Shown here: positions 3,201 to 57,319 of the stretch, one piece after another
Layout: every line of letters begins with the position of its first letter
Position numbering within the stretch: position 1 is the first letter of the stretch
From: a virus
Length of the DNA stretch: 57,319 bases
Strand: one strand, 5' to 3'
Virus record (IMG/VR): IMGVR_UViG_3300025520_000002
The notes under the pieces: model-generated
What the model was told of the DNA's origin: nothing
The model's database searches: none
What the model saw: only the letters and a program-made list of their open reading frames with translations
Translations under genes and position numbers: made by a program

Positions 3201-6200
3201 GCTTCGCTCGGACTGTATGCCTCGTCGTACACGTCCTGCAGGCGGAAGTACAGGCTGCGGAGAGTGTCCTCTCGCCCATACTTGCTGTTCGTCTCGCGCT
3301 CGGACCACGGCGTGGCGGCGAACCTTACTCCTTCGGTGCGTCCTTCTCCGCGCGGTCCATCTCCGCCGACGTCGGCAGTCGGTCGGGCCTCACCCTGCTG
3401 TCCACCTGTTCCTTCGGTGCCGGCCCCTTGGACCTGCGTTCCTGCGCCCGCTTCAACGCGGCTTCCAACGCGGGAGTAGTCTGCATACATCGTCTCCACA
3501 TAAGCGTGCGCCTCCGGCAGCTGCTGCTGCACGAACGCACGGAGTCCCGGGTCAAGGTGCGCAGCCCAGAGCTGGGCAAACACCTCGCTGTTTACAGCTT
3601 CAGGGGTGACCGACTCGTCTGCGAGAGGATACCGCAGGAACGAGCGAAGTCGCGTGGTCATGTCCGCCGGGCCGCCGTTGAACCGCTCGCGTACTACATC
3701 CACGATCTCCGCCCAAGCCGTATCTCCGGAGTAGTACGCGGAGCCGGCAGCGTCATCGGCGATGTGTGCCGCTTCGTGGTTGATCGTGCGGTTGAGGTCG
3801 TCGTCCGTCGCACGCGCCAGGAAGTCCTGGGTCAGAACGAGGCGGTACATGCCGTCGCCTTCCGGTACGACGAACGCATCCGCTCCGGTGTTTTCGCTGA
3901 GATACACGCCACTGATCTGGTCGTAGGCATGGCCGGCCGGGCTCACCAGCAGACGCCGCATGGCGTCCAGCACGCGGGGGTAACGCGCGAAGTTCATGTA
4001 CCGATACGACCAGAGGTTGCCGCCCGCGTCACGCGTCGACAGCTCCATGCCGAAGTACGGCTGGCGGGTGTAGAAGTTGCCCTGCTCCGCCTCGTCGAGC
4101 ATCTCGACGCCTGCACGATCAAACGCCGCCTGATTGATATCGAGGTTTTCCGCCGCCTGGTCGAGCTTCATCCATCGCTGCTTCTGCTGCGGCCCCCAGG
4201 CGCTCCACTCCGGATCACCGGCGCCGCGCCATGCGTCGTACGTCGCCTTCGCGGCGAGCAACGCCCCGCTGTTCTCATCTACCTCACGGGCTGTGAGGTC
4301 ACTGTTGTCGGCCCTGAACTCCACGAGGTCGGCCGGGTCTTGCGCGGCGCGTTCAAGCGAGCCGAGGTCAGCACCGGCGTTGATAACCTGGAACCCGGTG
4401 CTGGTGCCGCCTTCGGTGATGTCCTGCGCGATGCCCAGGTTCGCTGCATCCTGTGCCGTCATGCCGGCGCGGTCCTGGGTCAGTTGACGGATCTGGCTCT
4501 CGATCTCGGCGCGCTGTTCATCGGTCAGCCCCTCCTTGGTGTACTGCTCCTGGAGGTCGGCGAGACTTGCAGCGCGGGTAGTATCGGAGGGGACTGCGCT
4601 CGCGGGTCTCGCACTGAGGGCTTCGCGTACGGCAGTGGCGTCGAGTCCAAGACGCTGTGCAGTCTCAGCGAGAGCTGCAGCTGCAGCTGTCCGGCGCTTC
4701 TGCGCCCACTGTTTGTCGTTCTGCTCGAACTGCGCAGCGATGTCGGCGTCGCGGACCCCCATGGCCGAGAGGCGCAGCACGTCCTGCATCTGCGTCGGCA
4801 GCTGCTCGACCATGTACGCGACCTGTTGCTCGGGGTCGAGCCCGGTAACAAAGTTCTGCTCGTCGACGTCGTTCGCTTGGCGGACGGCGTCCATCGCGCC
4901 ACGTTTCACCCAGTCCATGCGTTCAGCGATGGCGTCCGCGGGGACAGCCCCCTGGTTGATCAGGGCGGCAAGGCGTCCGAGTTCAGCCTCTCGCAGTTTG
5001 TTGACCTTCTTGGTCTGCTTGATGCCGTACTGTTCCTTCAGCGTCTCCGCTGGTGGGATCAGGGGGCTTCGCGGGTCGCGCTCGGACGGGGTGCCGTAGA
5101 GCCGCGGGAACCCATCGCGTTGCACGGGCGGCTGCGCCTCCGGCACGCGCTCGTAGAGACTCGGCAGGGTGGGGTCGCCGAGTACAGATGTATCTACCTC
5201 CGGACGCGGAGGTACGTAAGGGTCGAGCCGCTCGTTCAGTGCAGGCAGGTCGCGCGTCGGCTCCTCGGATGGGATCACACCATAGCCGGGCGGCAGTTCG
5301 TTCAGGCGTGGGGCGTCCCCATAGGTATCGCCGAGCAGGTCACGCCGCTGGGTAGTGATAGGCACCGTCTCGCCTGGGATAGCACCGACTGCGCCAACCA
5401 CTCCGCCGCCCAGGGCTCCGAGCGCGCCAGCGTTCAGGTAGCCGCGGACAGCTTCTGCGTCCGTCAGGTCCTTGTAGTTCGCCTGCAGTTCGAGGGCCGT
5501 CTGGCCGATCTCAGTGCCTGCCTCAAGTCCAGCCTGCCGCACAGCTTCACGGCCGACGCGGCGAACGAGCGCTCCCGTAGCGCGGTCCCCGCCGAGGATG
5601 CGGTTCAAGGCCCGCAGCTCCGGCACAGCGTCAAGCAAGCCAGCGGCGGTGCCGTAGCCCAGTGCACGCAGCGAATCATCGTTTCCGGACTCGACCATCT
5701 CCGGGTAGATCGACCCGGCCTCCTGCGCGACGGACTGGGCAGCCGTGCCGAGCATCATGCCCCTGGAGGCACCCCGAGTGATCGCAGCCTTAGCAGCATC
5801 TCCAGCCAGAACAGCCGCACCACGGCGAGCCACAGCACCGCCCACCACACGGCCAGCGAGGCCAGCGCCAAGGCTACCGGCAGCCATTGGGACATGCTGT
5901 CCGAGGCCCGCCTGCGCAAAATCCACAGCGTCGCCGAAAGACGAGATGTTCGTGACGTCATCCGTCTCCCGAGCCAGGAGCGCGTCTTTTTCAAAGCGTT
6001 CACGGGCATAGTTCAGAGCGCCTCTCTTGATAGTTTCGGCGCCAGCGAGGTCAGCGGCGAGCGCGGTGACGCCGCCGATCGCTCCAAGGGTCTGCTGTCC
6101 GCCACGTCGCATGCCGCGGTAGAAGTCCCCGTCGTTCTGGCCGATGTCCACGCCCCAGTCGGTGGCGACACTGCGGATGTCCTTGCCGCTACGGCGGGAA

Positions 6201-6277
6201 AGCTCCTGCAGGATCTCGGCATCGGATGCCTCGGCCGCGTCCGGGTAGGCGCGGCGGATATCGTCGAGCGTGTTCAT
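236..6277 (-). CDS. Giant virion/ejection protein (2013 aa), PLxRFG type, with an internal HExxH zincin motif
   Basis: Uninterrupted ORF with GC-rich third positions. Motifs YAPLKRFGRH (PLxRFG) and TINHEAAHIADD (HExxH). Gly/Ala-rich N-terminus and hydrophobic helices near the C-terminus. Last gene of the structural operon. Confidence 0.7.
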   Translation of the reverse strand: MNTLDDIRRAYPDAAEASDAEILQELSRRSGKDIRSVATDWGVDIGQNDGDFYRGMRRGGQQTLGAIGGVTALAADLAGAETIKRGALNYARERFEKDALLARETDDVTNISSFGDAVDFAQAGLGQHVPMAAGSLGAGLAGRVVGGAVARRGAAVLAGDAAKAAITRGASRGMMLGTAAQSVAQEAGSIYPEMVESGNDDSLRALGYGTAAGLLDAVPELRALNRILGGDRATGALVRRVGREAVRQAGLEAGTEIGQTALELQANYKDLTDAEAVRGYLNAGALGALGGGVVGAVGAIPGETVPITTQRRDLLGDTYGDAPRLNELPPGYGVIPSEEPTRDLPALNERLDPYVPPRPEVDTSVLGDPTLPSLYERVPEAQPPVQRDGFPRLYGTPSERDPRSPLIPPAETLKEQYGIKQTKKVNKLREAELGRLAALINQGAVPADAIAERMDWVKRGAMDAVRQANDVDEQNFVTGLDPEQQVAYMVEQLPTQMQDVLRLSAMGVRDADIAAQFEQNDKQWAQKRRTAAAAALAETAQRLGLDATAVREALSARPASAVPSDTTRAASLADLQEQYTKEGLTDEQRAEIESQIRQLTQDRAGMTAQDAANLGIAQDITEGGTSTGFQVINAGADLGSLERAAQDPADLVEFRADNSDLTAREVDENSGALLAAKATYDAWRGAGDPEWSAWGPQQKQRWMKLDQAAENLDINQAAFDRAGVEMLDEAEQGNFYTRQPYFGMELSTRDAGGNLWSYRYMNFARYPRVLDAMRRLLVSPAGHAYDQISGVYLSENTGADAFVVPEGDGMYRLVLTQDFLARATDDDLNRTINHEAAHIADDAAGSAYYSGDTAWAEIVDVVRERFNGGPADMTTRLRSFLRYPLADESVTPEAVNSEVFAQLWAAHLDPGLRAFVQQQLPEAHAYVETMYADYSRVGSRVEAGAGTQVQGAGTEGTGGQQGEARPTADVGGDGPRGEGRTEGVRFAATPWSERETNSKYGREDTLRSLYFRLQDVYDEAYSPSEAFETAMEELTPQARRLLRELQNNDLLGFDYPHQALQALIEDPDSYDISPGLKRVISTFGNKYVRFSKPAQATAVESTLKEVLVPAARRTVAGYARKANYALLFGHQLVDRIGAMLPSARSFFRTLQDRITVRDRREARVMEIADRFYRLDQAEQARANRFIYESTFNQKWGYTPEWDRSAPVDAGMAAQFNALSEDAQLAVKQVFAYGNETQREYEQVLLRTKGAEVMTQLAEAEAAGDEKRIAALKKEQEKLTRENGALKTMLAGPYAPLKRFGRHAVVVRSQAFMDAEAAGEGARVEEMQSDPDHYQVMFVDSVFEREKKAVELQREFPDRNVVGFEREPESTRATELPLQAIKRLQEAIVTGPNGEKLSERSKRILGRIASDLYVASLDSLSARQTQQRRRNIHGANEDMMRAFVSQGRGMAHMLATLEVNGPMQESLQKMRTEARTGRTAEKADALNEVLNRYTLLMETRPTPFQDGAMATTSLWMLLTNPAYWFGNATQPFMMSLPVLAGRHNAGASWSAVLQGYRDTMPALEGRALDPRKLKSIVGREADAVQELLDRGHIDLTLEREMGEISETSWHTGHKIMGMLRWIPQRVEVTNRVATALAAYRLEYVRATGQGVDAATAHGLATEYADQIILDTHGDYSAAGAPRVLMQGSTQLPIKLMGQFRKFQLVQLGLMAKLIRQSFADGMSPDERTAARWSLAWMLGTYLTMTGLTGVIGANVVWGILSAFGDDDEKDLDLVLTRALGDRDAAILLTRGVPALLGMDVSQRLGMGNVLSLFPYADTEPAVKDSYTNYLMAATGPFLGGLLPRAASGVDYINQGDYWKGLELLVPNGLTNAMRAMRYAGEGYSNRKGDLLMSPDEIGVVSEIFQAVGLPTTVLTDRQWKAGVLYELEQTMRADATRIKRQYTEAARSRDTETMAELRGEWRQLQEMRARNGMKPQPLSSLLKAPQQQREREDLADEGVAMTKATAGFTGTVPD

Positions 6278-18015: not shown

Positions 18016-20077
18016 GTTGAGCAGTGTTGGTGACGGGAGTCCCGTCCGCCAGCTGCTGTCCGCCCCCGACCTGCGGCTGCATCTGCATTTGCTGCTGCGC
18101 CTGTGCCATCCAGCGCTGTTTGAGCACCTCGACCGGCGGGACCACCCGGTCGACCGGCATGTCGAGCCCCTTCGCCCCTTCGCGGAGCAGCTCTGCTGCT
18201 CCTTCCATGCCGATGACCTGTTGGGCGATCGGGCTCTGGAGGACCAGCTGGAGGTACTCGTTGCGACGCAGTTGCGCTTGCTCCTTTGCCACCAGCGACC
18301 TGGCGCCAGACGCGACGATGTACAGGTCGCCGCGCTTGAGATCCGTATCGGCGCTAGAGTCAATCATGTTGTTGTAGTACAGGCGTTCCAGGCACGGTTC
18401 GAGCACGCGTCCGTCCACGTTGCTGATGACCTGCTTGATGGTCTTCCCTGCGTTCGACATCAGCATGCTCATGCCGCTCGCCGTACGCCCGGCGCCGCCG
18501 ACAGCGGAATCCCCGGTCATGTAGCGTGGGATGCCGGAGTACTCATCCGCGAGGACGGAGAACTTCTCATACACCCCCATCAGCTCTGCTGCGTTGCTGT
18601 TGGGCTGGAAGAAGTCGATCGCTGGCGCAGTGGACCCGAATGGGTCGGACTTCGTCTGCCAGATCTTCCACGGGTACATCTGGGTGATCTTCTCGCCGTC
18701 GGCCAGGCGCTGCATGTTCACAGACACCTGCGGGCCGGAGCCGATCCCCATGTTGTTCATCAGCGCGCGAGCGGCGCCATTGCATGCGTCCTGGCAGTCG
18801 GCGACGAGATCCACTACCGAGTTGCCCCAGAACATCCCCGGCACTTGTTCGTAGCTTGCGGCGGCGTAGGGCTTCCGGCCGAGGTCATCGGGGTTGATCA
18901 CCGCACGGATAACCGTGTTGTCTATCAGCCATACCTCGCAGTCGTACTCGCGGGCGGGGTCTGGGACCTGGTCCTTGGGCAGTCCCCACTCGCGCAGCAT
19001 CTCGCCAGAGACCGACCCCCAGAATTGCAGTGCGTCGATACGCGTATCACCGTCGCCGACACCGGTCATATACGGGTCGAGGCGCCCTTCGGCTGCGGCC
19101 TTCGCGGAGTCTGCCGACATCCAGTTGTGGAACCCGCCACGCCCGTGCAGTTCCAGCACCTCGCGGATGGCCTTCTCGTTGTACCCGTCGACACCGATCA
19201 TCTCGGTCAGCGCCCGGCGCGTCAGCGGGATGTGCTCGATCATGTACCCGTCGTCGACGTTCGTCGCAAACGGGCTCGGGTAGAAGCGGAAGGGGTCGAC
19301 GCGCTCCCACTCCATCACCAGCCGCTCGCCTACCTTGGGCACCCAGCCGGCAGCCTCCTGCACCCACTCCAGCCGGCGCTTGCGGCGAACGACCGGCCCT
19401 TTGATGATGGCGGTCGGGAATGTAACCAGGTCGTCAATGAACTCCGAGAACGCGCGCTGGAAACCTCCCTCGGAGAGTTGGTCCTCCATCTTCAGCGCCA
19501 TGCGGTCCGCTGCGTCGCGCGCCTCAGCGTGAATGTCGGCCATCATCCGGTCGCGGAGACGCATCAGTGCCTCTCGCATGCCGGCGACCGTAGGCACCTG
19601 CCCCGTCGTCATGATGTATTGCTGCGCAGTGGCTGCGGCCTCCTGCATCGCCTCTTCCATAAGGTCCGGGGGGAGTTCCGGTATAGCCGTCGGCTCTATC
19701 GTCCACGGGCGAGCGCTGCCCGTGCCACCGTATGTGTCGCGGAGCCAGCTCGAAGCTGCACGACATTTGTTGCTCGTGAGCATCATGTAGATCTCAGACC
19801 CGCCGAACTGTCGGATCTGCGAGAGCTTCTCCGGGTCGTACTCCCCGCGTCGGCGGCGCACTGCCGACAACATGCGCTTCTCCACGCTCTGCATCTTGGC
19901 GTCGCGCGCTGCGTGCCAGCACTTGCGGACGTACCCAGCGAGTCCCTGGATAACCTGCTGGTTCTGCCCGTCTGTCGGCGCCGCGGCGGTAGTGGCCGCG
20001 GCAGCTTGGGCCGGCGTCATCACGCGTACGAGTCCACTACCCGCGTACGCAACGCGATCAATCGCTCCATCAGCCAT
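18002..20077 (-). CDS. Portal protein (691 aa)
   Basis: Size; position upstream of scaffold and capsid; conserved-looking core (DEYSGIPRYMTGD, YPWKIWQT). Confidence 0.7.
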   Translation of the reverse strand: MADGAIDRVAYAGSGLVRVMTPAQAAAATTAAAPTDGQNQQVIQGLAGYVRKCWHAARDAKMQSVEKRMLSAVRRRRGEYDPEKLSQIRQFGGSEIYMMLTSNKCRAASSWLRDTYGGTGSARPWTIEPTAIPELPPDLMEEAMQEAAATAQQYIMTTGQVPTVAGMREALMRLRDRMMADIHAEARDAADRMALKMEDQLSEGGFQRAFSEFIDDLVTFPTAIIKGPVVRRKRRLEWVQEAAGWVPKVGERLVMEWERVDPFRFYPSPFATNVDDGYMIEHIPLTRRALTEMIGVDGYNEKAIREVLELHGRGGFHNWMSADSAKAAAEGRLDPYMTGVGDGDTRIDALQFWGSVSGEMLREWGLPKDQVPDPAREYDCEVWLIDNTVIRAVINPDDLGRKPYAAASYEQVPGMFWGNSVVDLVADCQDACNGAARALMNNMGIGSGPQVSVNMQRLADGEKITQMYPWKIWQTKSDPFGSTAPAIDFFQPNSNAAELMGVYEKFSVLADEYSGIPRYMTGDSAVGGAGRTASGMSMLMSNAGKTIKQVISNVDGRVLEPCLERLYYNNMIDSSADTDLKRGDLYIVASGARSLVAKEQAQLRRNEYLQLVLQSPIAQQVIGMEGAAELLREGAKGLDMPVDRVVPPVEVLKQRWMAQAQQQMQMQPQVGGGQQLADGTPVTNTAQPLTS

Positions 20078-23000
20078 TGCTGCTCCCCATCAGGCTCGCC
20101 GCCTTGGAAATGAATTGCTGGGCGCGTTCGCGGAGCACATGCTCGTCGTCGCGCGCCTCGGCCATGCCGACGACGTAGTCCATCACCGCCGGCCAGAAGA
20201 CCCGAAGAACCGGGAACTCGTCCTGCATCGCGTACCGCTCTGGTGCGTACGCCGCCGACACGTCCAGCGGATGTCCAAACTGCGCCGGCGGCGTAACGTA
20301 GAACCTGCGCGGGTCACCCTCGTACGGAATCCAATGCGCCGGGGTCGAAAGCTCCGCCGTCATCCAGTCGGGGTCGAAGCGCTCTACCAACTCACGTGTG
20401 GTGGGACGCAGTCCGGCAATCGACGAGATGCGGATGGTGGAAGCAAGCGGGAGCCGCTGTACGACGCCTTCCTCGCACTTGTGCTTGATGAGTGCTGTGA
20501 ACAGTTCCGGGCGTACCGTCGCCAGTACGGCGAGCGCATCGTTCGCGTACCCGAGCAGGTCATCACCTGAGTAACGATACGGCTCCCGGCGGTCTGACAG
20601 GACACCGCGCGCCTGCTCAACCAGGACAGCCATCGTGTTCTGCTGCTGTGCGTTCCGGATCACCCGGACCTGGAAGCTGAAGCTCTCGCTGTCGGTCTCC
20701 GTCAGCACCTGACACGTGACGGTGTATGTCGAAAGGTGGGTGCCCCCCGACAGTGAGATCGCTGCCATGCCCGCCAAGAACGAGGTGGCGACAACGGTCA
20801 GCCCCGGCGACGTCCACGCGATGGATGTGGGGGTGCGGCCCGCTAGCCAACTGGCCCAGTTGACCTGGTATGTGGCGACCGCCTCGGGGTCCTTCTCGTA
20901 TACCCACTTGTCCTGCACCATGTAAGCAACCGACATGGGAGGAACAGAGTTCGGCACGTGCTCCGGTTCAGGGGGCGGCACGGGAGGCACGCCCTGCACG
21001 ATGTTGGGCTGGTTTCCGGACAGCGTGAGCCATGCGCCGACCGGCGATACCGTGATCGGCTGCGGGGGGATAACGATCGGCGTGATTACGGAAGGCGCCC
21101 CGCCGGTGGCAGTGATCGTCCCGGCCCCAGGGGTCACAACCGGACCCGTCATTGCGACGGAATACCCAAGGAGTGACGCCATGCGCGAGGCGATCGTGAC
21201 GATCTCTGCGCTGCCTTCGTAGTGGAGCGTGTCGTATGCCGGGGTGGGGCTGTCCAGGTCCAGTACGCCGAGCACATGCTCGTTGCTCGCCATGCCCGCG
21301 AGGGCAGCGCGGAACAGCGCGCCGTTCGCCTTGGGCGTCGGGTTGGCGTGGCATGGCATGGTCAGGACCCACTCTGCGGTCTGCCCGGATGCGGCGAACG
21401 CATCCATGATGGCGTCGAGCTTGCCCGCGTAGAGAGACGGATCGAGACCTGTGCCAGTCGCGTCGTCGGACATCGAGCCTTCGCCCTGCCACCACAGAAC
21501 TGCTCTGCAGCTGCCAATGCGCTGCGCCGTCGCCTGGAGCGCGCCGTACAGTGTGTTGGTGTCCGTCGGGTTGTTGGCCTCCCACATGTCGATCGTGGAA
21601 CTGCCTCGCGCTGCCGGGACCACGGCGATCGGGACGCCAGCCGCCATGGCAAGAGTGGCCAGATGCCCGTAGTAGGTGCCGTTGCGACCGCCGCCGCTCC
21701 CGAACGCGGAGTACACCGCCACCGCAGGGTCGTGAAACGGATTGTCCGGGGTCTCGAAGTTCTCCCTCCATGTATGCGCGAAGTCGAACTCGACCGCCTT
21801 CCAGGTGGGGTTGGCAGAGGGGGGTACGGGCTGCAGGAACGACGGCGACCAACCGGCTGCATTGCTTTGTCCGGCGGCGATATACACGTCCCCCACGCCG
21901 ACCAACGTCAGCGATGCGGATACGGCCGTATCGTTTGCGAACCGGATCTCCAGGGCACCTTGCGCAGGGCCGGAGAGCGTGACCGTTGCATCAAAGGCCC
22001 CGCCTGACGGTGAGGCGACGAGGGTCGCCCAGCTCCCGCCGTTGAAGCGCCACTGGATCGCAGTTGGCGCACCGTCGTACTCACCGGTGATGCGCACCCC
22101 GGTGGCCTGGTTCGATCCATTGCGTTGGAACAGCCGGTAGTTACGAGCGCCGGCCGGATCAGGACTGCCGCCAGACATCGGGACAGTGAACGAGATCGAG
22201 TTCGCTTCGACGGTGATGTTCGCTACGTCCGCAGACACCACCACCGTGTTGTTACTGTACCGGGCGCGGAGCACTGCGGCGACGGCGACGGGCAGCACTG
22301 CATTTCCAGACCAAACACCAGCCGACGCGGAGAACCCGGACAGCGTCACCCACGTGCCCCCGCCATGCTGTACCTGCACTCCTGCGGGGGCGGTACCGGT
22401 GTATGTGCCGCTGATCGTCGTGGTCGTAGGGATGCTGCTGCCCGCCGTCGGCGACGTGATGGTGAGGCCGTCCGAGGGTACTACGTTCGCTTCGAGGGCG
22501 AAGAAGTCACGGCCGACGTTCTGGGTCGTCGCGTCGTCCAGGGAAGTGCCGCCCCAGAAGCGAACGCCGTGGAAAGCTACGTCAATAGTCGCGGCGCTGG
22601 ACTGGTTCCAGCCCAGATACACGCGCTTGGCGCTGGTGTCGTTCCAGTCGGTGCTGTCACTGCCCGCAGCATTGCGTGCGATGAGGATGCCCGTCGGAGT
22701 CGCCTCTTGCGTCCAGACGTTCGTGACCCCGGCCCGGCGGCGAAACCACATGACGATGGTCTTGTTCGCACCGTAGACAACCGCGGTTTGCGCGGCGCCT
22801 TCACCGGTGGAGCTTGCTGCGTTGATGTACCAGCCGTTGCCGTTGCTCTCGGCGACGACGAACGAGACAAGCGCAGTGCCCGCGTCATTACGGACAACGA
22901 ACGCGTTGACCGAATTGGCCGAGGTGGGGAGTGTCGCGCCGGTGGTGATGAGTACAGCGACCTGGAAGTCGCCCGTGCCAACCTGGAGCCCCTGCCCGAG

Positions 23001-23246
23001 GAACGTCGTGTTGCTGTAGCTCGCTGGGTTACCGAGCCGAATACCTGGGATGCCGTTGTAGGTTACGGCCGTGCGCGTACCAGTGACCGACATCGTCGGT
23101 GCTGTCGCACCGCCATAGAGGAACGGCTGGGCCTCCGGTACGGTGGTGTCAAACCCAGTGAAGTCCCAGGCAAGCGTGACCCCGGCCGCGGCCGGGATGG
23201 ACCCCCGCGATAGCGGTAGAGTCCGCTGGTCGTAACTTACAGGCAT
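20070..23246 (-). CDS. 1058-aa multidomain virion protein. N-terminal lectin/Ig-like region, SASA/SGNH-type carbohydrate O-acetylesterase, small beta domain and a C-terminal adaptor-like domain.
   Basis: Esterase signatures AAGQSNAAGW and LWWQGEGSMSD (aa ~450-690). Pro-rich linker PPVPPPEPEHVP. No stop codon and no SD before the in-frame Met771 or Met872. Confidence 0.6.
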   Translation of the reverse strand: MPVSYDQRTLPLSRGSIPAAAGVTLAWDFTGFDTTVPEAQPFLYGGATAPTMSVTGTRTAVTYNGIPGIRLGNPASYSNTTFLGQGLQVGTGDFQVAVLITTGATLPTSANSVNAFVVRNDAGTALVSFVVAESNGNGWYINAASSTGEGAAQTAVVYGANKTIVMWFRRRAGVTNVWTQEATPTGILIARNAAGSDSTDWNDTSAKRVYLGWNQSSAATIDVAFHGVRFWGGTSLDDATTQNVGRDFFALEANVVPSDGLTITSPTAGSSIPTTTTISGTYTGTAPAGVQVQHGGGTWVTLSGFSASAGVWSGNAVLPVAVAAVLRARYSNNTVVVSADVANITVEANSISFTVPMSGGSPDPAGARNYRLFQRNGSNQATGVRITGEYDGAPTAIQWRFNGGSWATLVASPSGGAFDATVTLSGPAQGALEIRFANDTAVSASLTLVGVGDVYIAAGQSNAAGWSPSFLQPVPPSANPTWKAVEFDFAHTWRENFETPDNPFHDPAVAVYSAFGSGGGRNGTYYGHLATLAMAAGVPIAVVPAARGSSTIDMWEANNPTDTNTLYGALQATAQRIGSCRAVLWWQGEGSMSDDATGTGLDPSLYAGKLDAIMDAFAASGQTAEWVLTMPCHANPTPKANGALFRAALAGMASNEHVLGVLDLDSPTPAYDTLHYEGSAEIVTIASRMASLLGYSVAMTGPVVTPGAGTITATGGAPSVITPIVIPPQPITVSPVGAWLTLSGNQPNIVQGVPPVPPPEPEHVPNSVPPMSVAYMVQDKWVYEKDPEAVATYQVNWASWLAGRTPTSIAWTSPGLTVVATSFLAGMAAISLSGGTHLSTYTVTCQVLTETDSESFSFQVRVIRNAQQQNTMAVLVEQARGVLSDRREPYRYSGDDLLGYANDALAVLATVRPELFTALIKHKCEEGVVQRLPLASTIRISSIAGLRPTTRELVERFDPDWMTAELSTPAHWIPYEGDPRRFYVTPPAQFGHPLDVSAAYAPERYAMQDEFPVLRVFWPAVMDYVVGMAEARDDEHVLRERAQQFISKAASLMGSSNG

Positions 23247-23828: not shown

Positions 23829-25293
23829 ATGTCCAGCCGCCGGATGAGATCGTCTCGATCGGCTGCGCCTTGACGTCGTGCGCAGCCCCGACGAGTTCTG
23901 CCCCGCCGGCGTTCAGGCAGAGGTACTGGAAGCTGTCCGCCAGGTCCGACCAGGGGTGTGACTTCTCGGGCGAGACCTCCGTCTCCCCTTTGCTGTTGGT
24001 CTTGTAGCGATACTTGCCGGCGAGTGCCTGGACCAGGGGGGCGGCGTGCGTCGGGCACAGGAGAACCCCCGGCTCCCCGTCCACCAGTCGCGTAAGCAAT
24101 GCATCCACCGCGCCCAGTCGAGCTGGTAGTGTGTTGTTGGTGCATGCCGCCTTGACCATGAATCCTTCGGCCTTGTAGATGTCGGCCACTGTCCGTTCGT
24201 CGGTCTGCGCCCGCTGAAACGCCGCCGGGTCGACGAGCACTACGCTTCTACGCCCAGGGAACCGGTTGGCCAGCACGGGCTTGAGCTTTTCGCGGATGAA
24301 CCGAAGCGCCCCCATCCCCTCCGACGGGATGGCGTGGTAGACCAGCAGCCGGCCGCGGTAGTCCACCTCCCCGATCGACACTGCCGGTGAGAGCCCCGCA
24401 TCCGCCCCGATGAGCAGCAGCCCGCTCGACGCTGTCTGGATGAGCAGCTCGCTCTTGGCGACGTGGATGGATCGGTTGAACGCCTTGTGCACCGGCTGGC
24501 CGGAGAGCGACTTGCCGAACTTGGCGTGGATGTAGACGTCGATGTAGTCCTGCTTCTTCCCCGCGGCGAGGTTCTCGTAGTAGTCCGCCGGCAGGTACTT
24601 GATCCAGTCCGCCTCCGGCGACATGCCGCTGGGCTGGATGGTCACGTGGGTGTTCTCGGGCGGATCGGAGAGGAACGTCTCCCAGAACGTATCCATGTCA
24701 GGCGGGTTACTCGCCCCCCACAGGTGCGCGTTGGGCTGGCCGTCCTCGGTGACACACCCGCCGACCGGGCTCCCCTTCTTGTCGAGCCCCCACTCCGGTC
24801 GATGCGGCACCATCATCTTGTCCGGGTATCGGCCAAGACGCCCCTGCAGTGCTTCGAAGATGTCCTTGTTGTGCTCCCGGAACTCCTCCAACACGGCGAA
24901 ACTCGTCTGCAGCGAGAGCAGGCGGCGCACGTCGTCAGCGTCGTCCAGGCCGCGGAACAGCACCTCGCACTCCACGTCGTTGAACTGGAGCACGAACCGG
25001 TACTCCGTCTTGTAGAACGTGCCGGCCACGCCGTCCTGGTAGATCTTCAGGAAGTCCGGGATGCTCGTGTCGCGCAGCTGCTCCTTGGTGTTGCGCACCC
25101 ATACACACCGGGACCGCCGGATACCGTCCTTGCAGGGGGCCATGCGTGCCGCGTGGTACGCGATCTTCGCCAGGCTGGCCGATGTCTTGGTCGAGCCGAC
25201 CGGCCCCACCACCAGGCTGATGAATTTCTCCGAGGTGAAGAAGTCGTAAAGCGATGCAACCGGCTCGATGACCAGGTTGTTGTCGTCAGCCAC
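23827..25293 (-). CDS. terL: Terminase large subunit (488 aa)
   Basis: Walker A VGPVGSTKTS, Walker B-like FAVLEEF, and a C-terminal RNaseH-fold nuclease region (LLIGADAGLSP...). Confidence 0.85.
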   Translation of the reverse strand: MADDNNLVIEPVASLYDFFTSEKFISLVVGPVGSTKTSASLAKIAYHAARMAPCKDGIRRSRCVWVRNTKEQLRDTSIPDFLKIYQDGVAGTFYKTEYRFVLQFNDVECEVLFRGLDDADDVRRLLSLQTSFAVLEEFREHNKDIFEALQGRLGRYPDKMMVPHRPEWGLDKKGSPVGGCVTEDGQPNAHLWGASNPPDMDTFWETFLSDPPENTHVTIQPSGMSPEADWIKYLPADYYENLAAGKKQDYIDVYIHAKFGKSLSGQPVHKAFNRSIHVAKSELLIQTASSGLLLIGADAGLSPAVSIGEVDYRGRLLVYHAIPSEGMGALRFIREKLKPVLANRFPGRRSVVLVDPAAFQRAQTDERTVADIYKAEGFMVKAACTNNTLPARLGAVDALLTRLVDGEPGVLLCPTHAAPLVQALAGKYRYKTNSKGETEVSPEKSHPWSDLADSFQYLCLNAGGAELVGAAHDVKAQPIETISSGGWT

Positions 25294-25744
25294 GCAGCTC
25301 TGCCCTCGTGAACGTCAGCGTGTCGATGCCCATGCCGCACCCGACGTCCAGGTCGCACGCTACCTGCACCGCCTGCCTGGCGTTCTTTCCCAGGTGCATG
25401 GCTGCCAGGGCGAAGTGGATGCCACTGCCGATCGCCCTCTTCTGCTCGTGGAACACGATCGGGTACGGCGAGTCCTCGTAGGTGAGGGTCTTGCCTGAGG
25501 GCAGCACGACCAGTGCTTCGCTCTCACTCTCTTCGAGTGCTTTGGGCCAGGTGTTCAGGTCGAAGCCCGTCTGCGCCCAATGGACGAACGCCTGCATGTC
25601 GAACGCGCGACCAGCCACGCCGATCAGCACCGGCCCGTCTTCTGTCTGGACCTTGGCGATTTTCGTTGTAGCCATGCGCGTGTTCGCGCCGGTGGCCTGC
25701 CGGTCGGCGGCCAGGGTTTTGCCGTCCCAAGCGATGCAGGTCAT
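25286..25744 (-). CDS. HslV-like (proteasome beta-type) Ntn peptidase (152 aa)
   Basis: [32 protein letters not shown] aligns by eye with the HslV N-terminus [35 protein letters not shown]. Thr2 nucleophile, conserved Lys and the AIGSG motif are present. Confidence 0.7.
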   Translation of the reverse strand: [152 protein letters not shown]

Positions 25745-26232
25745 CAGAACTCCTCTGTCGGAAGTGCGACCTCCGCGAGCGCGGTGAGGTCGATGTTGAT
25801 GTTCGGCACCGCGGTGGCAGTGCCTTCGATGACACGGCCCTTGGGGGGCTGGAGGTTGAAGGTGATGCTGAACTTAGGACCTGTGTCGGCCTGCACTGCC
25901 TGCTTGGCTCCAATGCCGGCGCCCTTGAACAGCACGTCCAGGTACTTGACGTCCACTTCCTTCAGGCTGCGTGCGGAGACCGCCTTGGTGCAGTGCTCCA
26001 TGTGAGCGATGGCATGCATGCGCACGCGCGCCTGGTCCATCTCCCCCGTCTTCTCCAGCTGGCGGCGCTGCTCGGTGACTGCACGCTCAAGCTCGGGGCT
26101 GCGCAGTAGGTAGGCGACCTGCTCGTTCTCGAATCCGAAGTCACGAAGCACCTGCTCCGGGTCGGTCATGCCGAACGCCAGGGCAAGCACTGCTTTGTGC
26201 GGGACGTCGTAGAGGGAGATTTGATTCGACAT
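25744..26232 (-). CDS. First late gene (162 aa), candidate small terminase subunit
   Basis: Called from position only (two genes upstream of terL, first gene of the operon); no diagnostic motif. Confidence 0.35.
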   Translation of the reverse strand: MSNQISLYDVPHKAVLALAFGMTDPEQVLRDFGFENEQVAYLLRSPELERAVTEQRRQLEKTGEMDQARVRMHAIAHMEHCTKAVSARSLKEVDVKYLDVLFKGAGIGAKQAVQADTGPKFSITFNLQPPKGRVIEGTATAVPNINIDLTALAEVALPTEEF

Positions 26233-26237
26233 GCTTA

Positions 26238-26249
26238 CCTGTTAGCACA
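26238..26249 (-). promoter_or_regulatory. Motif variant TGTGCTAACAGG
   Basis: 5 nt upstream of the ATG at 26232; just downstream of the minus-strand terminator. Confidence 0.5.
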
Positions 26250-26264
26250 TCTGAGGAGGCCTGT

Positions 26265-26294
26265 CAAAAAAGACGCCCTGGTGTGAGCAGGGCG
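26265..26294 (-). terminator. Rho-independent terminator on the minus strand, about 30 nt upstream of the first late gene
   Basis: Minus-strand sense CGCCCTG-ctcacac-CAGGGCG followed by TCTTTTTTG. Confidence 0.7.
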
Positions 26295-26351
26295 AAGAGG
26301 AGACCACAAGGAGGTGAATCGAGTGTACGGGTGGCTGGTTGGCGGGTCAAG

Positions 26352-26369
26352 CTGCTAACGGTTTAGCAG
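26352..26369. promoter_or_regulatory. Palindromic motif variant CTGCTAAcggtTTAGCAG
   Basis: 7-bp perfect arms, inside the non-coding leader. Confidence 0.5.
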
Positions 26370-26769
26370 GAGGTTGGGGATAGGGCTAGCTCTGTGGGCG
26401 ATACCTAAGGGGGGTACCCCCCTGCGCGAGCGTGGTCCGGGTAGGGGGGTGGTAGGGCCGCCCGCCGGGCCATCTGGTGTCGGCGTGGCATAGGTGCAGG
26501 ACCGGCAAAGCACCGCCGGGGGGTCAGAGTTCTACAGAACGCCCGATCCCTGCCGTACAGGGTAAGAGCATGCACCGCACGACACGCGGGATTGTCTCCG
26601 GTAGGCGAAGCCATAGCGCGGACGGTGCGCACAAACCCATAGCGGGCGAGTGCCGCAACCTGAAGAACGTAGAGAATTGGCACGCCGAGTCGTCGAATGG
26701 TTCCGACCATGCAGGCCGTTAAAATCGGTAGCACTGGGGCGCCCAAGACACTAAATAGCTGTTTGACTA

Positions 26770-26794
26770 CATCACATGCGCGTTTCGTGTGATG
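26770..26794. promoter_or_regulatory. Inverted repeat CATCACA-N11-TGTGATG, candidate operator upstream of the first rightward gene
   Basis: 7-bp perfect arms; sits between a TTGACT hexamer (26763..26768) and the motif copy at 26803. Confidence 0.35.
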
Positions 26795-26802
26795 CACTCA
26801 AC

Positions 26803-26817
26803 CTGCTAACTACTTAG
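26803..26817 (+). promoter_or_regulatory. Motif copy CTGCTAACTACTTAG
   Basis: 10 nt upstream of the ATG at 26828; overlaps the RBS. Confidence 0.6.
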
Positions 26818-26827
26818 GAGTGTAACC

Positions 26828-27409
26828 ATGATCACGTCCCGCCAGTTCGCCGCGAAACTCACGGCGATCACGAAGTCTGACGACGCGCTGCGCACGGCTG
26901 TGTGCGATGCGCTTGCGTTCGCTGTGTTCCATCACACGGCGCACAAGAACAAAGACCCGGTCAAGCGCTTGCATGCCGCCGTGTCGGGCATCAAGTGGCT
27001 GTCCGCTGCGCTGTCTAAGGTGCAGATGCCCGTCACGAAGAAGGACTACACGGAGCAGGACGCCGAAACGTTCGCCACGTTCGCTGTCCGCGGTATCTGG
27101 GATGGGCAGCAGGCCAAGCGCGAGAAGTCCCGCGATGAGCGCAAGGTCCGCAAAGCCGTGAAGCCCGCAACGGACGACACGCCGAAGCCGGAAGAGCTGA
27201 CCGGCAGTCCGATGGATGAAGCCGTCATCGGCGGCGACATCATCGACGGGAAAGTTGTCGAAGTGGTCGAGCTGACCATGCCGGCTGACACCTGCGTGTT
27301 GATCGGGCTCGACGCCGTGCCGCTTGAACTGACGGTCGAGGAATACGAAGCTGCGCTGCGCGCCGTCATGGCACTGCGGATGAAGGACCGCGCCCTCAAG
27401 GCAGCGTAA
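26828..27409 (+). CDS. Hypothetical early protein (193 aa)
   Basis: RBS AGGAG; coding-like bias; Lys/Glu-rich middle segment. Confidence 0.6.
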   Translation: MITSRQFAAKLTAITKSDDALRTAVCDALAFAVFHHTAHKNKDPVKRLHAAVSGIKWLSAALSKVQMPVTKKDYTEQDAETFATFAVRGIWDGQQAKREKSRDERKVRKAVKPATDDTPKPEELTGSPMDEAVIGGDIIDGKVVEVVELTMPADTCVLIGLDAVPLELTVEEYEAALRAVMALRMKDRALKAA

Positions 27410-27420
27410 TGCGGCACCCT

Positions 27421-27443
27421 GCCCGGTTCCGGCCGGGCCATTT
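27421..27443 (+). terminator. Weak terminator-like hairpin after the 193-aa gene
   Basis: GCCCGG-ttccgg-CCGGGC followed by CATTT; short U-tract. Confidence 0.3.
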
Positions 27444-27517
27444 CCACACCGTCGGCACCGCTGGCTGTTTGGAAATGTCTTATTGCTGGATTATCAGGCA
27501 CTTGCCGGGTATTTAGT

Positions 27518-27527
27518 CAGACGTCTG
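27518..27527. promoter_or_regulatory. Palindromic box CAGACGTCTG. Related AGACG(T/C)C boxes at 27736..27743 and 27640..27646, and reversed copies near 27553 and 27862.
   Basis: Read directly; about 5-6 boxes within 400 bp of otherwise non-coding DNA. Confidence 0.5.
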
Positions 27528-27605
27528 GTATATAGGCAACCCATTTGGCATTCCGTCTAGATCGGGCACTCCCCGCAAACGGCTTGCAGCTGTCTTTTAG
27601 ACCTT

Positions 27606-27761
27606 CTATATATATATAAATAGTATAAATAGTATAATAAGACGCCGATTTAGTAGCACCGCCATTGGCAGCCCGACCCTGCGCGGGTGCAGCTGAGCCG
27701 GAGCGTGTTAGTCCATGGCCGAGGGTGCTGTAATTAGACGTCTTTTTGTACTATTTATACT
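27606..27761. repeat. AT-rich island with a 25-bp imperfect inverted repeat (27622..27646 and 27737..27761, 22/25 match, 90-bp spacer)
   Basis: Left arm AGTATAAATAGTATAATAAGACGCC. The reverse complement of the right arm is AGTATAAATAGTACAAAAAGACGTC. A (TA)6 run at 27606..27618 and a perfect TATAAT at 27633..27638. Confidence 0.8.
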
Positions 27762-27774
27762 AAATGGCGTGTAG

Positions 27775-27861
27775 ATGTCGTTTGCGGGCATGCATAACTA
27801 GCCGAAATAGACAGTTCGCCCCCGTCGCACCCCCAGCCCGGCCCTCAAGTCGGGCTTTTTT
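27775..27861 (+). ncRNA. Candidate short transcript ending at an intrinsic terminator (5' end hypothetical)
   Basis: Terminator AGCCCG-gccctcaagt-CGGGCT-TTTTT at 27835..27861, downstream of the AT-rich repeat arm (TATACT at 27756..27761). No convincing ORF. Confidence 0.25.
27835..27861 (+). terminator. Rho-independent terminator
   Basis: 6-bp GC stem, 10-nt loop, T5 run. Confidence 0.6.
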
Positions 27862-27901
27862 ACGTCTTGACCCTGCCGACCAGCCCATAAGGAGCCCCGC
27901 C

Positions 27902-28542: not shown

Positions 28543-28559
28543 CTGCTAACACCTTGACA
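28543..28559 (+). promoter_or_regulatory. Motif copy CTGCTAACACCTTGACA
   Basis: First of two tandem copies upstream of 28610. Confidence 0.65.
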
Positions 28560-28581
28560 TCATCAGGGCGCTTGGCCTAAC

Positions 28582-28596
28582 CTGCTAACACCTTAC
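28582..28596 (+). promoter_or_regulatory. Motif copy CTGCTAACACCTTAC
   Basis: 13 nt upstream of the ATG at 28610. Confidence 0.65.
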
Positions 28597-28609
28597 CAAG
28601 GAGGCACTC

Positions 28610-31284: not shown

Positions 31285-33921
31285 ATGCCCGAACCAACAC
31301 CGCAACAGGAGGCACTGACTGCCTCGCAGGCTGCACAGCAGATCGACTGGCAAGCGTACGCGATTCCGCAGGATGTCCTGATGACCACTTTGGATAACGA
31401 CATGAGGCGCGCCCTCTGGCAGGACATCATGACACTGGACACCCGCCCCAACGTCGTCTTCCGCACCATGCCGGCGGTCACCTACGGACAGGTCGCTGAC
31501 GTCACCGAGTACCACACCGGCACGACCGCCGCCCACATCCCCGCCGTCACTCGCTCCGACAAACTGAGCTACAACATCGGGACACCCACAGCGGACTGCA
31601 TCAAGGAGGTCGCTGCTCTGTTCGAGGGAATCCCGTATGAGGGGTTCGTGAGCATGTATGACACGGTGTTCCACAACGGGGGGCAATACACCCGTTACGA
31701 CACCGTTAAGTGGGTGCTGCGTCTGATCAACTCCGGAGACTGCCTGGGCGCCCTCGGTGTGACTGCGGATGTGATGGAGGACTGTGAGTACGCGACGGCT
31801 TCCCTCCTCGCAGGGTGCACGTTTGGACGGGGGGTACCCCGTCGCGCACGTATCCGCTACCAGACCCACGGCCAGTACCTGACGGACCGCGGACTGCCCA
31901 CCCCCAAGTGGATGCGGGACGACTCGACGCACTACTCCTACGCCCCACTGCTCGGCCCGGAGGCTGAGGTGGTGCACACAGTAGGCGGGGCTCTCGCGTT
32001 CAGGGAGGAGGACGTGATGGCGGCGGTCCGCCTCGGCGGTAGTCGCCGTTGTAACCCCTACCACACACACGCAGTGAGGGCAATCAACGGGGAAGAGGCG
32101 ATCCGCTGGCCGTGGTGGCTGATCGACTTCGACCACTTGCTCGGAGACGCCGGGCAGAACTTGAGCCCCGAAGCCCGGCGCGCATGGCTCCGGATGCGGG
32201 CGTCCAACAACCTGCAGGCACGCATTGCGCGTTGGAACAGCGACGACATGCGCCCCGAGTACAACCCCAAGCGGACGGATATCAGCAGTGCCATTCACCG
32301 CACCCGTCACGCCGGGCTTAACGAGGCATTGATGTGGGCACGCAGCCACCAGAAGGAGTGGGACCGTGCGTATGTGCTCGAAGCTATGAGCATCAACGCC
32401 ACCTTGCCGTCCCGTCTTGGCCATGAGATGGACAACTACCGCAAGGCGAAGGCCAATAAGCTCGGGCTCAAGCACTTGGAATACTACGCTCGTCTCGACT
32501 GGATGGACCGCGAACGAGCGGGGCTGCCGCATAACCCCGACCTCGACCGGCCGTGGGACCGCAGTCGCAGCTGCCGTGGTATGCCGTGGTGTAACGAATG
32601 GTGGTGGTACGCAGGGACAAACCCGCTCGAACTCCTGCATCGTCCGGACGTTGCGACCGACCCGATGCAGCTCTCGTACTGGCAGAGCGCAGACAAGTTC
32701 CACCGTAACGTGCGCACCACCATCAAGCCGGGCAAGTACCTCAAGAAATACTTCGGGCTCAAGAGCAAGGACGCCCTGTTCCCCGTGCTGTCCGACGCCG
32801 AGATCCAGAAGTGGGCCGAAGCATGGGAGCGTGAGTTCAAGCCGGTGCCCGTGCACTTCAAGGAGGACAACGACCCCGACGGCTGGACGTGGGTGTACTC
32901 CAACGAGACGGGCTTCGAGTCGTGCATGTCGTCGGGGAAGAACTCGGGGCGAGGCCCGGACGCAGTGCGCATCTTCGCCAAGGAAGGCAACGGCCTGCGT
33001 CTCGCTTACACCACGGACACCGGAGAGCCGGACGGCATGGTGACGGCGCGCTGCATCGTCAACGACAAGGTCAAGTCGCGTGGTCGGGTGTACGGCGACG
33101 CTCGTCTGGGTATGACCCTCGGCCCCCTCGGGTACCTGCCGAAGGAACAGCAGCTCGAAGGTGTGGAGCTGGCGCTCATCGAGTACGACGCCAACCACTG
33201 GTACCTGCCCTACATTGACCGTGGTACCGAGTCGGGGGGCGGGAGCATGTACGTCAGGCTCAACGAAGACAAGACGGCACTCATCTGCACGTCAGAGCAC
33301 GTCGATGACTGCCAAGCATGCCGGTACGAGACGGCTCTCATCCCCAAGCGGTACCTCGATGCCGCCCACCGCATGAAGCCGGGCGACGAGATCATCCGAG
33401 AGGATGATGACGATGAAGAGTGCGTGCCGTGTGATGTCTGCGGTGAATACCGGCATGCGGAGGAACACGAACACTCATCGTTCCATGACGAGCATATCTG
33501 CCCCGACTGCATTGACGGGTACCGCTTTGCTTACGTGGGTCGCTATGAAATGGCGTGGGTGCGGAGTGATCTCGTAGTCGAGTGCGACGGGGAGGACTAC
33601 CTCGACCGACACGATGTGCTGTCAGCCCACGACCTGGCGCGCTGCGAGCACGACGGTGAGGTCTACTCGATCGACGATCTGGTGGAAGTGCCTTCGGGCG
33701 AGCGCGTCCACGCCATGTACGCCACTGCATTGGACCACGCCCACGAGAACGGCCACGGAGACACGTTCGACTGGTGTATGGACGAGGATGCGGTCGAGCT
33801 GCACGACGGCACTGTCGTCTTCAAGGAGGACGCTATCGAGTGGGAGGACGGTTCACTCCACCACGTCAACGACCCCGAGCCGGAGCAGGACGACGAAGCC
33901 GCAGAAGAACAAGCGGCATAA
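31285..33921 (+). CDS. Large orphan early protein (878 aa) with a Cys/His cluster and an acidic tail
   Basis: RBS AGGAGG. CVPCDVCG...HICPDC zinc-ribbon-like cluster (aa 713-742, nt ~33421..33510). C-terminal tail DPEPEQDDEAAEEQAA. No family recognised by eye. Confidence 0.7.
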   Translation: MPEPTPQQEALTASQAAQQIDWQAYAIPQDVLMTTLDNDMRRALWQDIMTLDTRPNVVFRTMPAVTYGQVADVTEYHTGTTAAHIPAVTRSDKLSYNIGTPTADCIKEVAALFEGIPYEGFVSMYDTVFHNGGQYTRYDTVKWVLRLINSGDCLGALGVTADVMEDCEYATASLLAGCTFGRGVPRRARIRYQTHGQYLTDRGLPTPKWMRDDSTHYSYAPLLGPEAEVVHTVGGALAFREEDVMAAVRLGGSRRCNPYHTHAVRAINGEEAIRWPWWLIDFDHLLGDAGQNLSPEARRAWLRMRASNNLQARIARWNSDDMRPEYNPKRTDISSAIHRTRHAGLNEALMWARSHQKEWDRAYVLEAMSINATLPSRLGHEMDNYRKAKANKLGLKHLEYYARLDWMDRERAGLPHNPDLDRPWDRSRSCRGMPWCNEWWWYAGTNPLELLHRPDVATDPMQLSYWQSADKFHRNVRTTIKPGKYLKKYFGLKSKDALFPVLSDAEIQKWAEAWEREFKPVPVHFKEDNDPDGWTWVYSNETGFESCMSSGKNSGRGPDAVRIFAKEGNGLRLAYTTDTGEPDGMVTARCIVNDKVKSRGRVYGDARLGMTLGPLGYLPKEQQLEGVELALIEYDANHWYLPYIDRGTESGGGSMYVRLNEDKTALICTSEHVDDCQACRYETALIPKRYLDAAHRMKPGDEIIREDDDDEECVPCDVCGEYRHAEEHEHSSFHDEHICPDCIDGYRFAYVGRYEMAWVRSDLVVECDGEDYLDRHDVLSAHDLARCEHDGEVYSIDDLVEVPSGERVHAMYATALDHAHENGHGDTFDWCMDEDAVELHDGTVVFKEDAIEWEDGSLHHVNDPEPEQDDEAAEEQAA

Positions 33922-51598: not shown

Positions 51599-51640
51599 GT
51601 GATGACGCCCCCGGTAGGTGCCGGGGGCAACAGGACGCAT

Positions 51641-57273: not shown

Positions 57274-57319
57274 CGCCGTTTTCCGCGGGTTCGATTCCCG
57301 CCGCCTCCACCACCATATC
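57193..57319. repeat. Right copy of the 127-bp terminal direct repeat
   Basis: Identical to 1..127. Confidence 0.95.

Follow-up and report, generated by a model that had tools for sequence, protein, structure and literature searches.

Introduction

In phage lambda, the Q protein binds between the -35 and the -10 of the late promoter. Phage P1 has scattered C1 operators, and in lambdoid phages the N-domain of the O protein is exchanged together with its origin of replication (ori). Here we analyze a locus that invites comparison with all three systems, namely the 595-base gap at positions 26233-26827 of IMG/VR virus record IMGVR_UViG_3300025520_000002. This record is a stretch of 57,319 nucleotides, which we call the window, and it represents the genome of an uncharacterised temperate podophage. 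The gap is flanked by the minus-strand ATG at 26232, where the late genes begin, and by the plus-strand ATG at 26828, where the early genes begin. A further point of comparison is provided by L5-type phages, from which dispersed, oriented repressor sites are known (PMC6550527).

A first-pass annotation of the window had described the gap as a non-coding leader of about 560 nt ending in a terminator just before the first late gene, and had suggested that late transcription needs either read-through of this terminator or an unconventional start. Our analysis leads to a different proposal. We suggest that the gap is a divergent control region in which the late operon would be driven from its own promoter, P2, a host-type sigma70 element placed after the terminator with its -35 fused to the terminator's T-tract, and that the first late message would be leaderless. 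The terminator would not gate the late operon; it would end a ~50-nt RNA from a second promoter, P1, and would shield P2 from upstream transcription. The late switch would probably be set by a protein that binds copies of a 16-bp motif (16-mer), and a distal block of ~320 nt would be part of the module of the plus-strand neighbour rather than of a late leader. For this combination as a whole, we put the chances of being right and of being wrong at about equal.

Results

A predicted late promoter past the terminator

Our comparisons use eight to nine related lineages that share the junction, reached through homologues of both flanking proteins. Class A comprises the window, L093, L097-99, L150-153, L155/156 and L158-162, with a gap of 592-596 nt where it is complete; class B comprises L094-96 (gap 997 nt) and L100 (gap 878 nt); and L101 is a more distant partial sequence.

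P2 occupies 26239..26267 of the minus strand and consists of TTGACA (26267-26262), 17 nt, and TAACAG (26244-26239) preceded by TGc. The same element can be written as TTGACA, a variable N14 and the 16-mer TGCTAACAGGTAAGCA (26247-26232), whose final A is the A of ATG 26232; the motif copy that the first-pass annotation had placed directly at this ATG is indeed there. The 14-nt gap between TTGACA and the 16-mer is invariant in seven lineages, and the sequence of the spacer varies. L101, which has neither P1 nor the terminator, keeps TTGACA-N14-TGATAACAAGTCAACA-TG. TTGACA itself is found nine times in the 57 kb, counting both strands, and three of these nine sit 0-23 nt upstream of a 16-mer. The gap-14 geometry recurs at 50226 (TTGACT-17-TAACGT), with a normal leader and Shine-Dalgarno sequence there. 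These features suggest that P2 is the probable promoter of the late operon.

Where would the message begin? The first late gene can start nowhere but at ATG 26232, because an in-frame TAA lies just upstream inside the motif and because the N-terminal peptide is conserved. The -10 of P2 ends 6 nt before the A of this ATG, a geometry kept in the same seven lineages. No Shine-Dalgarno sequence precedes the ATG in L097 and L101, and the window and some other lineages have a weak AGGT. Transcription from P2 is thus predicted to start at A26232, 7 nt past the -10, or within 1-2 bases of it, and the first late mRNA would probably be leaderless. The earlier argument that this position leaves no room for a promoter plus a 5' untranslated region (UTR) holds for the UTR, for which there is no conventional space, but not for the promoter, since the predicted TTGACA-17-TAACAG fits. 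Similarly, of the two routes that the annotation had allowed, the unconventional start is likely, in leaderless form, while read-through of the terminator is probably unnecessary because P2 lies downstream of it. A promoter between 26233 and 26264 had been named as an observation that would speak against the annotation's view; there is such a promoter in prediction only, with a geometry that L101 shares with the six other lineages.

The terminator and its predicted short RNA

Just upstream of P2 on the minus strand, the hairpin CGCCCTG-ctcacac-CAGGGCG followed by TCTTTTTTG occupies 26265-26294, and a terminator scan also reports it, at 26266..26294. It has a 7-bp stem with six G-C pairs, a 7-nt loop and the tail UCUUUUUU, with TCTTTTTT directly after the stem, which is the hairpin plus U-tract expected of an intrinsic terminator. 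Five lineages have five different stems, and every one of them folds as a hairpin with a U-run, so that the changes are compensatory; moreover, the terminator unit of the window has a folding z of -3.1. We take the hairpin to be a real, selection-maintained intrinsic terminator, in agreement with the first-pass annotation. Its T-tract overlaps the -35 of P2.

Further upstream, a promoter scan and conservation together point to P1, a sigma70-type promoter TTGACC-17-TACACT at 26322..26350 of the minus strand. In six lineages TACACT is invariant and the spacing is 17 nt (18 in L097), with spacer sequences that are unrelated to each other. Judged by its position relative to the -10, the transcript of P1 would start at ~26315 and cover 26266..26315 (minus strand), about 50 nt in all. 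It would have a single-stranded 5' end with CCUCCUUG (26314-26307), then the hairpin and the U-tract, and folding gives an identical architecture, ~20 nt of single strand and then the terminator, in five lineages. The RNA ended by the terminator would therefore be no long leader but this ~50-nt product of the promoter at 26350-26322.

A conserved promoter and a conserved terminator directly upstream of the first late gene are also what one would expect if the locus worked in the manner of lambda PR'-tR'. In that case P1 would be the late promoter, its ~50-nt RNA would stop at the terminator, and a phage factor, an unrecognised Q-like protein perhaps acting via a 16-mer copy called O1, would let RNA polymerase read the 26-kb late operon. 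O1 is conserved and adjoins the -35 of P1, the window has its weak AGGT before the ATG, and many early open reading frames (ORFs) lack a recognisable family, which leaves room for an unrecognised factor. However, a Pfam and PHROG scan of ~40 ORFs, in which distant or novel factors could go unseen, matched neither an antiterminator family (Q, N or other) nor a sigma factor or RNA polymerase; the first-pass annotation had likewise recognised no Q-like gene. The spacer between the -35 and -10 of P1 is not conserved, L101 dispenses with P1 and the terminator yet keeps TTGACA-N14-16mer-ATG, L094-L096 tolerate a 131-nt insertion between terminator and P2, and two lineages lack a Shine-Dalgarno sequence for an internal AUG. 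Finally, the late arm has no more terminator-like sites than shuffled sequence would lead one to expect, so that there is no apparent need for processive antitermination. We consider late control of this kind unlikely, though with a chance that should be kept in mind.

The insertion itself (L094 ~2260-2395, also in L095 and L096) has a TTTTTG duplication at its flanks and looks like a small insertion element resembling a miniature inverted-repeat transposable element (MITE).

A second possibility concerns the short RNA alone. The unit from P1 to the terminator could be a stand-alone small RNA (sRNA) whose CCUCCUUG, which resembles an anti-Shine-Dalgarno sequence, serves as a seed pairing with ribosome-binding sites (RBSs) of phage or host; its location would then be incidental or would add promoter occlusion, and such an sRNA is compatible with a late operon driven from P2. 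The necessary parts, that is, promoter, ~20-nt single-stranded seed, hairpin and U-tail, are present in five lineages, and the folding z of -3.1 is in keeping with them. The seed is kept in five of the six lineages with P1, as CCTCCTTG, L093 having TCTCCTTG instead, and TCACCTCCTT (26317-26308) equals what we take to be the 3' end of 16S rRNA. The best Rfam near-match, mmgR at 26259-26323, is an sRNA of the anti-Shine-Dalgarno type, although the match is weak and non-significant (E = 0.98). On the other hand, the target search over phage start regions yielded no clear outlier: the best predicted duplexes, with the integrase gene (-24.9 kcal/mol) and the gene at 17609 (-24.1), compare with a mean of -15 and a standard deviation of 4. 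Moreover, a CCUCC seed would pair with almost any RBS, the unit is absent from L101, and the RNA is a predicted one. We regard a regulatory sRNA as improbable.

Operator-like copies of the 16-mer

The motif at the late ATG is one of a family of 16-bp quasi-palindromes with the consensus TGCTAACnnGTTAGCA. A genome scan finds 17 sites with at least 11 of 14 matches, where 1.1 are expected, and 10 with at least 12 of 14, where 0.1 are expected. Three copies lie in or at the gap. O2, the copy TGCTAACAGGTAAGCA on the minus strand at 26232..26247, has 13/14 matches and is conserved in all lineages; its left half also serves as the -10 of P2, with the TGn extension, so that the -10 (TGc-TAACAG) would sit inside an operator and a bound protein would cover ~-15 to +1 of the promoter. 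O1, the best palindromic copy (TGCTAAACCGTTAGCA, 26353..26368, 13/14 matches), lies within the dyad CTGCTAAcggtTTAGCAG at 26352-26369, 2 nt upstream of the -35 of P1, which it thereby abuts, and is retained as TGMTAA-N4-TTAKCA with a variable centre in every lineage. O3, TGCTAACTACTTAGGA on the plus strand at 26804..26819, has 12/14 matches, is conserved in relatives and overlaps the RBS of the divergent gene 26828-27409.

The ~14 further copies lie elsewhere in the genome. Almost all 16-mer sites stand at gene boundaries, in both arms, with one inside polA, and they are conserved at orthologous places in relatives. Reading the site lists, we find the stronger half-site upstream relative to local transcription in 15 of the 17, and one site inverted. 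The sites outside the gap include 9825, 16678, 17992, 23758, 28544, 28583 and 37449, as well as 37729, 45329, 45955, 50226, 50633 and 51909.

The motif overlaps sigma70-like promoters in three registers. At P2 and at 50226 it follows TTGACW after a gap of 14 nt; at 28583 and 37449 the gap is 23 nt and a TAAnCT -10 stands just before the 16-mer; and at 17992 it comes directly after TTGACA. The copy at 50633 cannot be a promoter, since it covers a stop codon together with the ATG of the following gene. Given this copy and the lack of a consistent register, we rejected both a plain sigma70 -10 and an activator box at -30 as readings of the motif. Tandem copies at 28544 and 28583, 39 nt apart, bracket a promoter whose TTGACA comes from the right half of the first copy and whose -10, TAACCT, adjoins the second, an arrangement kept in L093, L097, L150, L153 and L154. 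We read 28544-28598 as the probable main early promoter, equipped with two operators. Overall, the pattern of sites fits an operator bound by a dimeric regulator better than it fits a promoter proper.

The conserved block follows its plus-strand neighbour

By blastn, class B shares with the window only 26519-26233, and the ~580 nt beyond are unrelated. Among class A sequences, sliding identity is 90-97% in the ultraconserved block at 26480..26800, as against 51-86% in the flanking genes, and 54-77% with sharp conserved islands in 26233-26480. By these comparisons the interval splits in two, a late control core (26233-26519) and the block (26480-26800).

The class of the block follows the N-domain type of the adjacent protein of 193 amino acids (aa), which is encoded by 26828-27409. 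Between classes, the N-terminal domain of this protein (~100 codons) is 33% identical, as compared with 70% for the C-terminal 60 residues. The terS-like protein on the late side behaves otherwise: its identity is 88% and 84% in class B and only 73% in L097, a member of class A. Because the class tracks the 193-aa N-domain and not the terS-like protein, the block belongs genetically to the plus-strand neighbour. The supposed ~560-nt leader is thus better described as a divergent gap that has no conserved minus-strand promoter upstream of the block and whose distal ~320 nt are a swappable plus-strand module.

The 193-aa protein and its homologues (P0006-P0018) have a helical N-domain, a disordered basic/acidic linker and a small C-domain, with a mosaic breakpoint between the domains. 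No recognisable family and no significant PDB match were found for it.

Two hairpins in the block deserve attention. Across seven lineages there are four double-sided compensatory pairs where 0.6 are expected (reached in 0/500 shuffles), and all four fall in H1 or H3. H1 (26765..26799) includes the inverted repeat CATCACA-N11-TGTGATG (26770-26794) and has one compensatory A-T to G-C change; in H3 (about 26699..26743), L158 shows three compensatory pair changes and one G-U to G-C. Does the block then specify a long structured minus-strand RNA across 26800-26300, acting in cis like put or as some other antitermination or leader RNA? Besides the compensatory pairs, both hairpins have a G-U pair only in the minus-strand reading, and nucleotide conservation of the block is extreme. 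Against such an RNA stand the lack of a conserved minus-strand promoter upstream of the block and a folding energy no better than that of shuffles (z -0.58 and +0.42 for the block; -0.46 and -0.35, not beyond chance, for the whole region). Outside H1 and H3, seven one-sided changes keep pairing and six break it as A-C, which gives no structural support, and class B has unrelated sequence in place of the block with the same late genes. The Infernal/Rfam check that the first-pass annotation had proposed, run with Rfam 15 on the window, gave no match at gathering score and sub-threshold matches of E 0.68-9.8 at best (searched to E 10). We think that a long cis-acting RNA is very improbable. Covariation against related phages, which had also been proposed, therefore supports the terminator stems and H1/H3 but not the rest of the block.

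Realistic options for the block are a cis site or leader of the plus-strand gene, or a module boundary homogenised by recombination. An origin of replication was rejected, there being no iterons and no AT-rich element in class A or class B.

The shared core and the packaging-site reading

The remainder of the core, 26370..26519, is common to classes A and B and in part to L101, as judged by blastn, alignments and segment lengths. It contains a hairpin CCGGCgg..GCCGG, the invariant CTGCACCTATGCCACGCCGACACC and a segment of G/C runs of variable sequence. It also contains a G5-loop-C5 hairpin, which is the palindrome GGGGGGTACCCCCC at 26409-26422, and then TTAGGTAT; perfect 14-nt palindromes number eight in the genome where ~5 are expected, and a single one is thus not beyond chance. 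Like the hairpin at 26265, the dyad at 26352 and the repeat at 26770, this palindrome was found exactly where the first-pass annotation had placed it. In the alignment of the core from six lineages, the invariant columns are mainly the O1 half-sites (26368-26353), TACACT (26327-26322) and parts of CCTCCTTG, with further ones in TTTTTGACA, in TGTGCTAACA..G..GCATG and at a few scattered positions. Within 26370-26475 some lineages have a run of C6-7 and others of G6-7 at the same position (ACCCCCC-TACCCGG vs ACGGGGGGG-TACCCGG).

The first-pass annotation had offered as an alternative that the region is a pac site. Indeed, terminase could recognise a cos or pac site here, either in the region as a whole or in the part of the core with the G/C runs and the G6TAC6 palindrome, which precedes the terS-like gene by ~180 bp. 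The region comes immediately before the terS-like gene and TerL, all classes share the core and also the terS-like protein, and the palindromic G/C element stands between invariant flanks, with the span from the invariant block to O1 kept at 96-109 nt (85 in L101). The G/C segment, however, is highly variable among lineages whose terS-like proteins are 73-93% identical, the class of the ultraconserved block does not follow the terS-like protein, and contig ends differ (~26668 in L092, ~26468 in L152). The protein itself is called TerS from position only, with no family, fold or significant PDB match. A packaging site here strikes us as quite improbable.

Integration would be another conceivable role. 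The integrase gene is 30 kb from the interval, and the gap is unbroken inside a prophage, L093, on a 470,807-bp contig; the interval is therefore not the phage attachment site (attP).

Coding capacity and further searches

That the interval is non-coding, as the first-pass annotation had held, is borne out by the 130-aa ORF at 26405-26797. Its GC content at third codon positions (GC3) is 0.60, whereas real genes have 0.82-0.88; a 1-nt insertion interrupts it in L093; and its substitutions fall alike on codon positions 1, 2 and 3, with no third-position bias. Both this ORF and one of 81 aa were rejected as genes. We likewise discarded a gene of 252 aa called in L100, because its translation is junk and its frame is not open in L094, and, by inspection, a plus-strand mini-ORF behind the Shine-Dalgarno-like CAAGGAGG, which meets an immediate stop (GTG TAG) in the sequences of the L150 group. 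A conserved coding gene in the interval would have spoken against the annotation's view, and none was found.

A tRNA/tmRNA scan found none, the region matched complementary sequence elsewhere in the genome only at chance level, and a sigma54 reading of TGGCATAGGTGCA was dropped by inspection for its wrong spacing. Searches for relatives by other routes added nothing. BLAST of the region against phage (isolate) and plasmid collections gave no match, the terS-like protein had no relatives in IMG/VR, and TerL relatives in genomes and IMG/VR were at most 70% identical and not syntenic at this junction. A scan of metagenome contigs with an invariant 19-mer pattern gave 48 matches, all chance or coding, and two exact-pattern scans of IMG/VR found nothing.

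Genome context

The window represents a complete phage genome, assembled as a circle of ~57.19 kb (~57,192 bp). Its ends are identical over 127 nt (bases 1-127 equal 57193-57319), which marks the assembly overlap of a circle. The same phage is also present as a 57,333-bp ENA contig (L091) and as a 7.5-kb contig (L092) of a metagenome-assembled genome.

Structural and packaging functions are encoded in the minus arm (236-26232), which has genes for the 162-aa terS-like protein, an HslV-like peptidase, TerL, a 1058-aa SASA/GP4-gp77 adaptor, the portal and a 2013-aa DarB-like protein. Early and replication genes are found in the plus arm (26828-57273), which has a tyrosine integrase at its far end. 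The ORF/GC3 gene map, the gene calls in the identical contig L091 and the lack of a conserved ORF define the divergent non-coding control region at 26233..26827; the map and the calls both place the right-hand neighbour, 26828-27409, on the plus strand. The interval is a divergent intergenic region, with no minus-strand gene upstream of it.

Several features elsewhere in the genome may be recorded. The HslV/proteasome-like peptidase gene (phrog_1040, 25286-25744) lies between the terS-like gene and TerL, an unusual placement, and relatives carry an extra Phage_gp49_66 gene at this position. The 2013-aa protein (236-6277) matches, in its C-terminal part, DarB-like giant virion proteins of Bcep22-type podophages, and the 1058-aa protein (20070-23246) combines a SASA esterase domain with a GP4 gp77 fibre-tail adaptor domain. 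An 878-aa protein (31285-33921) has an acidic C-terminus rich in Cys and His, and the 16-mer variant TGATAAC precedes its gene; we rejected it as an RNA polymerase, there being no family or PDB sequence match and no DxDGD catalytic motif seen in the translation.

A second non-coding gap, 27410-27900, is AT-rich. In it TATATATATA is followed by repeats of AATAGTATAA, and palindromes of the form (T)AGACGTCT occur at ~27518 and ~27736. It also has a terminator (27835-27856), immediately behind which come TTGACC and a 41-aa ORF. This gap may be an immunity switch or an origin.

Discussion

Our analysis suggests that the late operon has a promoter of its own beyond the terminator and that the message would begin at the initiation codon. 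Several considerations weigh against this proposal. The -10 of P2, TAACAG, does not have the usual final T and would be weak unless the TG extension, the consensus -35 or an activator helps. Leaderless mRNAs are uncommon in proteobacteria, and the AGGT that precedes the ATG by 5 nt in the window, weak as it is, would equally serve a transcript that reads through from P1. In L094 the TTGACA arises from the TTTTTG target duplication of the 131-nt insertion, and this lineage is thus not independent evidence for P2. Rather than an operator, the 16-mer may be a promoter element specific to the phage, or it may act at the RNA level, and for its repressor there is only a weak HTH_31 match at 51599-51907. 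Moreover, P1, P2 and the other promoters are predictions from sequence rather than from transcript ends.

If the predictions hold, late control in this phage group would be both compact and unusual, with a T-tract fused to a -35 and a message that starts at an ATG inside an operator. More generally, an annotated terminator ahead of late genes should not count as proof of control by antitermination. The block is of interest for a different reason. It is non-coding and more conserved than the genes around it, and its alternative allele is tied to a protein domain, which makes it a target in the search for a new pair of protein and nucleic acid that recognise each other. In the boldest version, the block with its two covarying hairpins would be a new cis element, of RNA or structured DNA, paired with the 193-aa N-domain, with classes A and B as specificity alleles, and, in addition, the late operon would be driven by a leaderless promoter inside an operator and subject to a genome-wide repressor network of the stoperator kind, in a podophage of a Gram-negative host. 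We would be surprised, though not astonished, if all of this proved correct.

How, then, does the locus compare with known systems? To lambda PR'-6S RNA-tR' it is alike in having a sigma70 promoter and a short terminated transcript just upstream of a terminase-first late operon in a temperate phage. It differs in that no Q-family gene was found among the ORFs scanned, the promoter spacer is not conserved, and a second promoter-like element follows the terminator; moreover, the terminated RNA would be ~50 nt as compared with 194 nt in lambda. Thus, of four testable features, the analogy with lambda Q that the first-pass annotation had drawn retains the order of promoter and terminator and fails on the other three, a Q-like gene, a constrained spacer and the lack of a promoter past the terminator. 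The analogy with HK022 put, suggested only by that annotation, would make the region a cis-acting element upstream of phage operons that replaces a protein antiterminator. It fails outright, since P1 is not followed by twin stem-loops, Rfam gives no match and folding energies show no signal.

Closer parallels can be drawn for the parts. As with lambda cI expressed from PRM, which is leaderless, the predicted start falls on the A of the AUG, and some lineages lack a Shine-Dalgarno sequence. Here, in contrast, the gene is the first of a late structural operon, its start is overlapped by an operator-like palindrome, and that start is predicted, not mapped. The joint exchange of the block and the N-terminal ~100 codons of the 193-aa protein, with a C-terminal domain that stays ~70% identical, resembles the pairing of lambdoid O and ori. 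The block differs in having no iterons or AT-rich unwinding element, the protein is without recognisable family or fold, and plain physical linkage explains the co-inheritance equally well.

The layout of the 16-mers finds its nearest counterpart in the stoperators of Cluster A mycobacteriophages (L5, Bxb1) and in the C1 operators of phage P1; indeed, ~17 oriented operator copies spread over both arms is a layout best documented so far in actinobacteriophages and in P1. The site here is a 16-bp quasi-palindrome, while stoperators are 13-bp and asymmetric, and the phage is a podophage of a Gram-negative host, with putative binding and roadblock activity and no cognate repressor recognised. What the systems would have in common is the arrangement: some 17-20 copies in this genome, on both arms, nearly all at gene boundaries and oriented with transcription, some of them inside promoters and others not.

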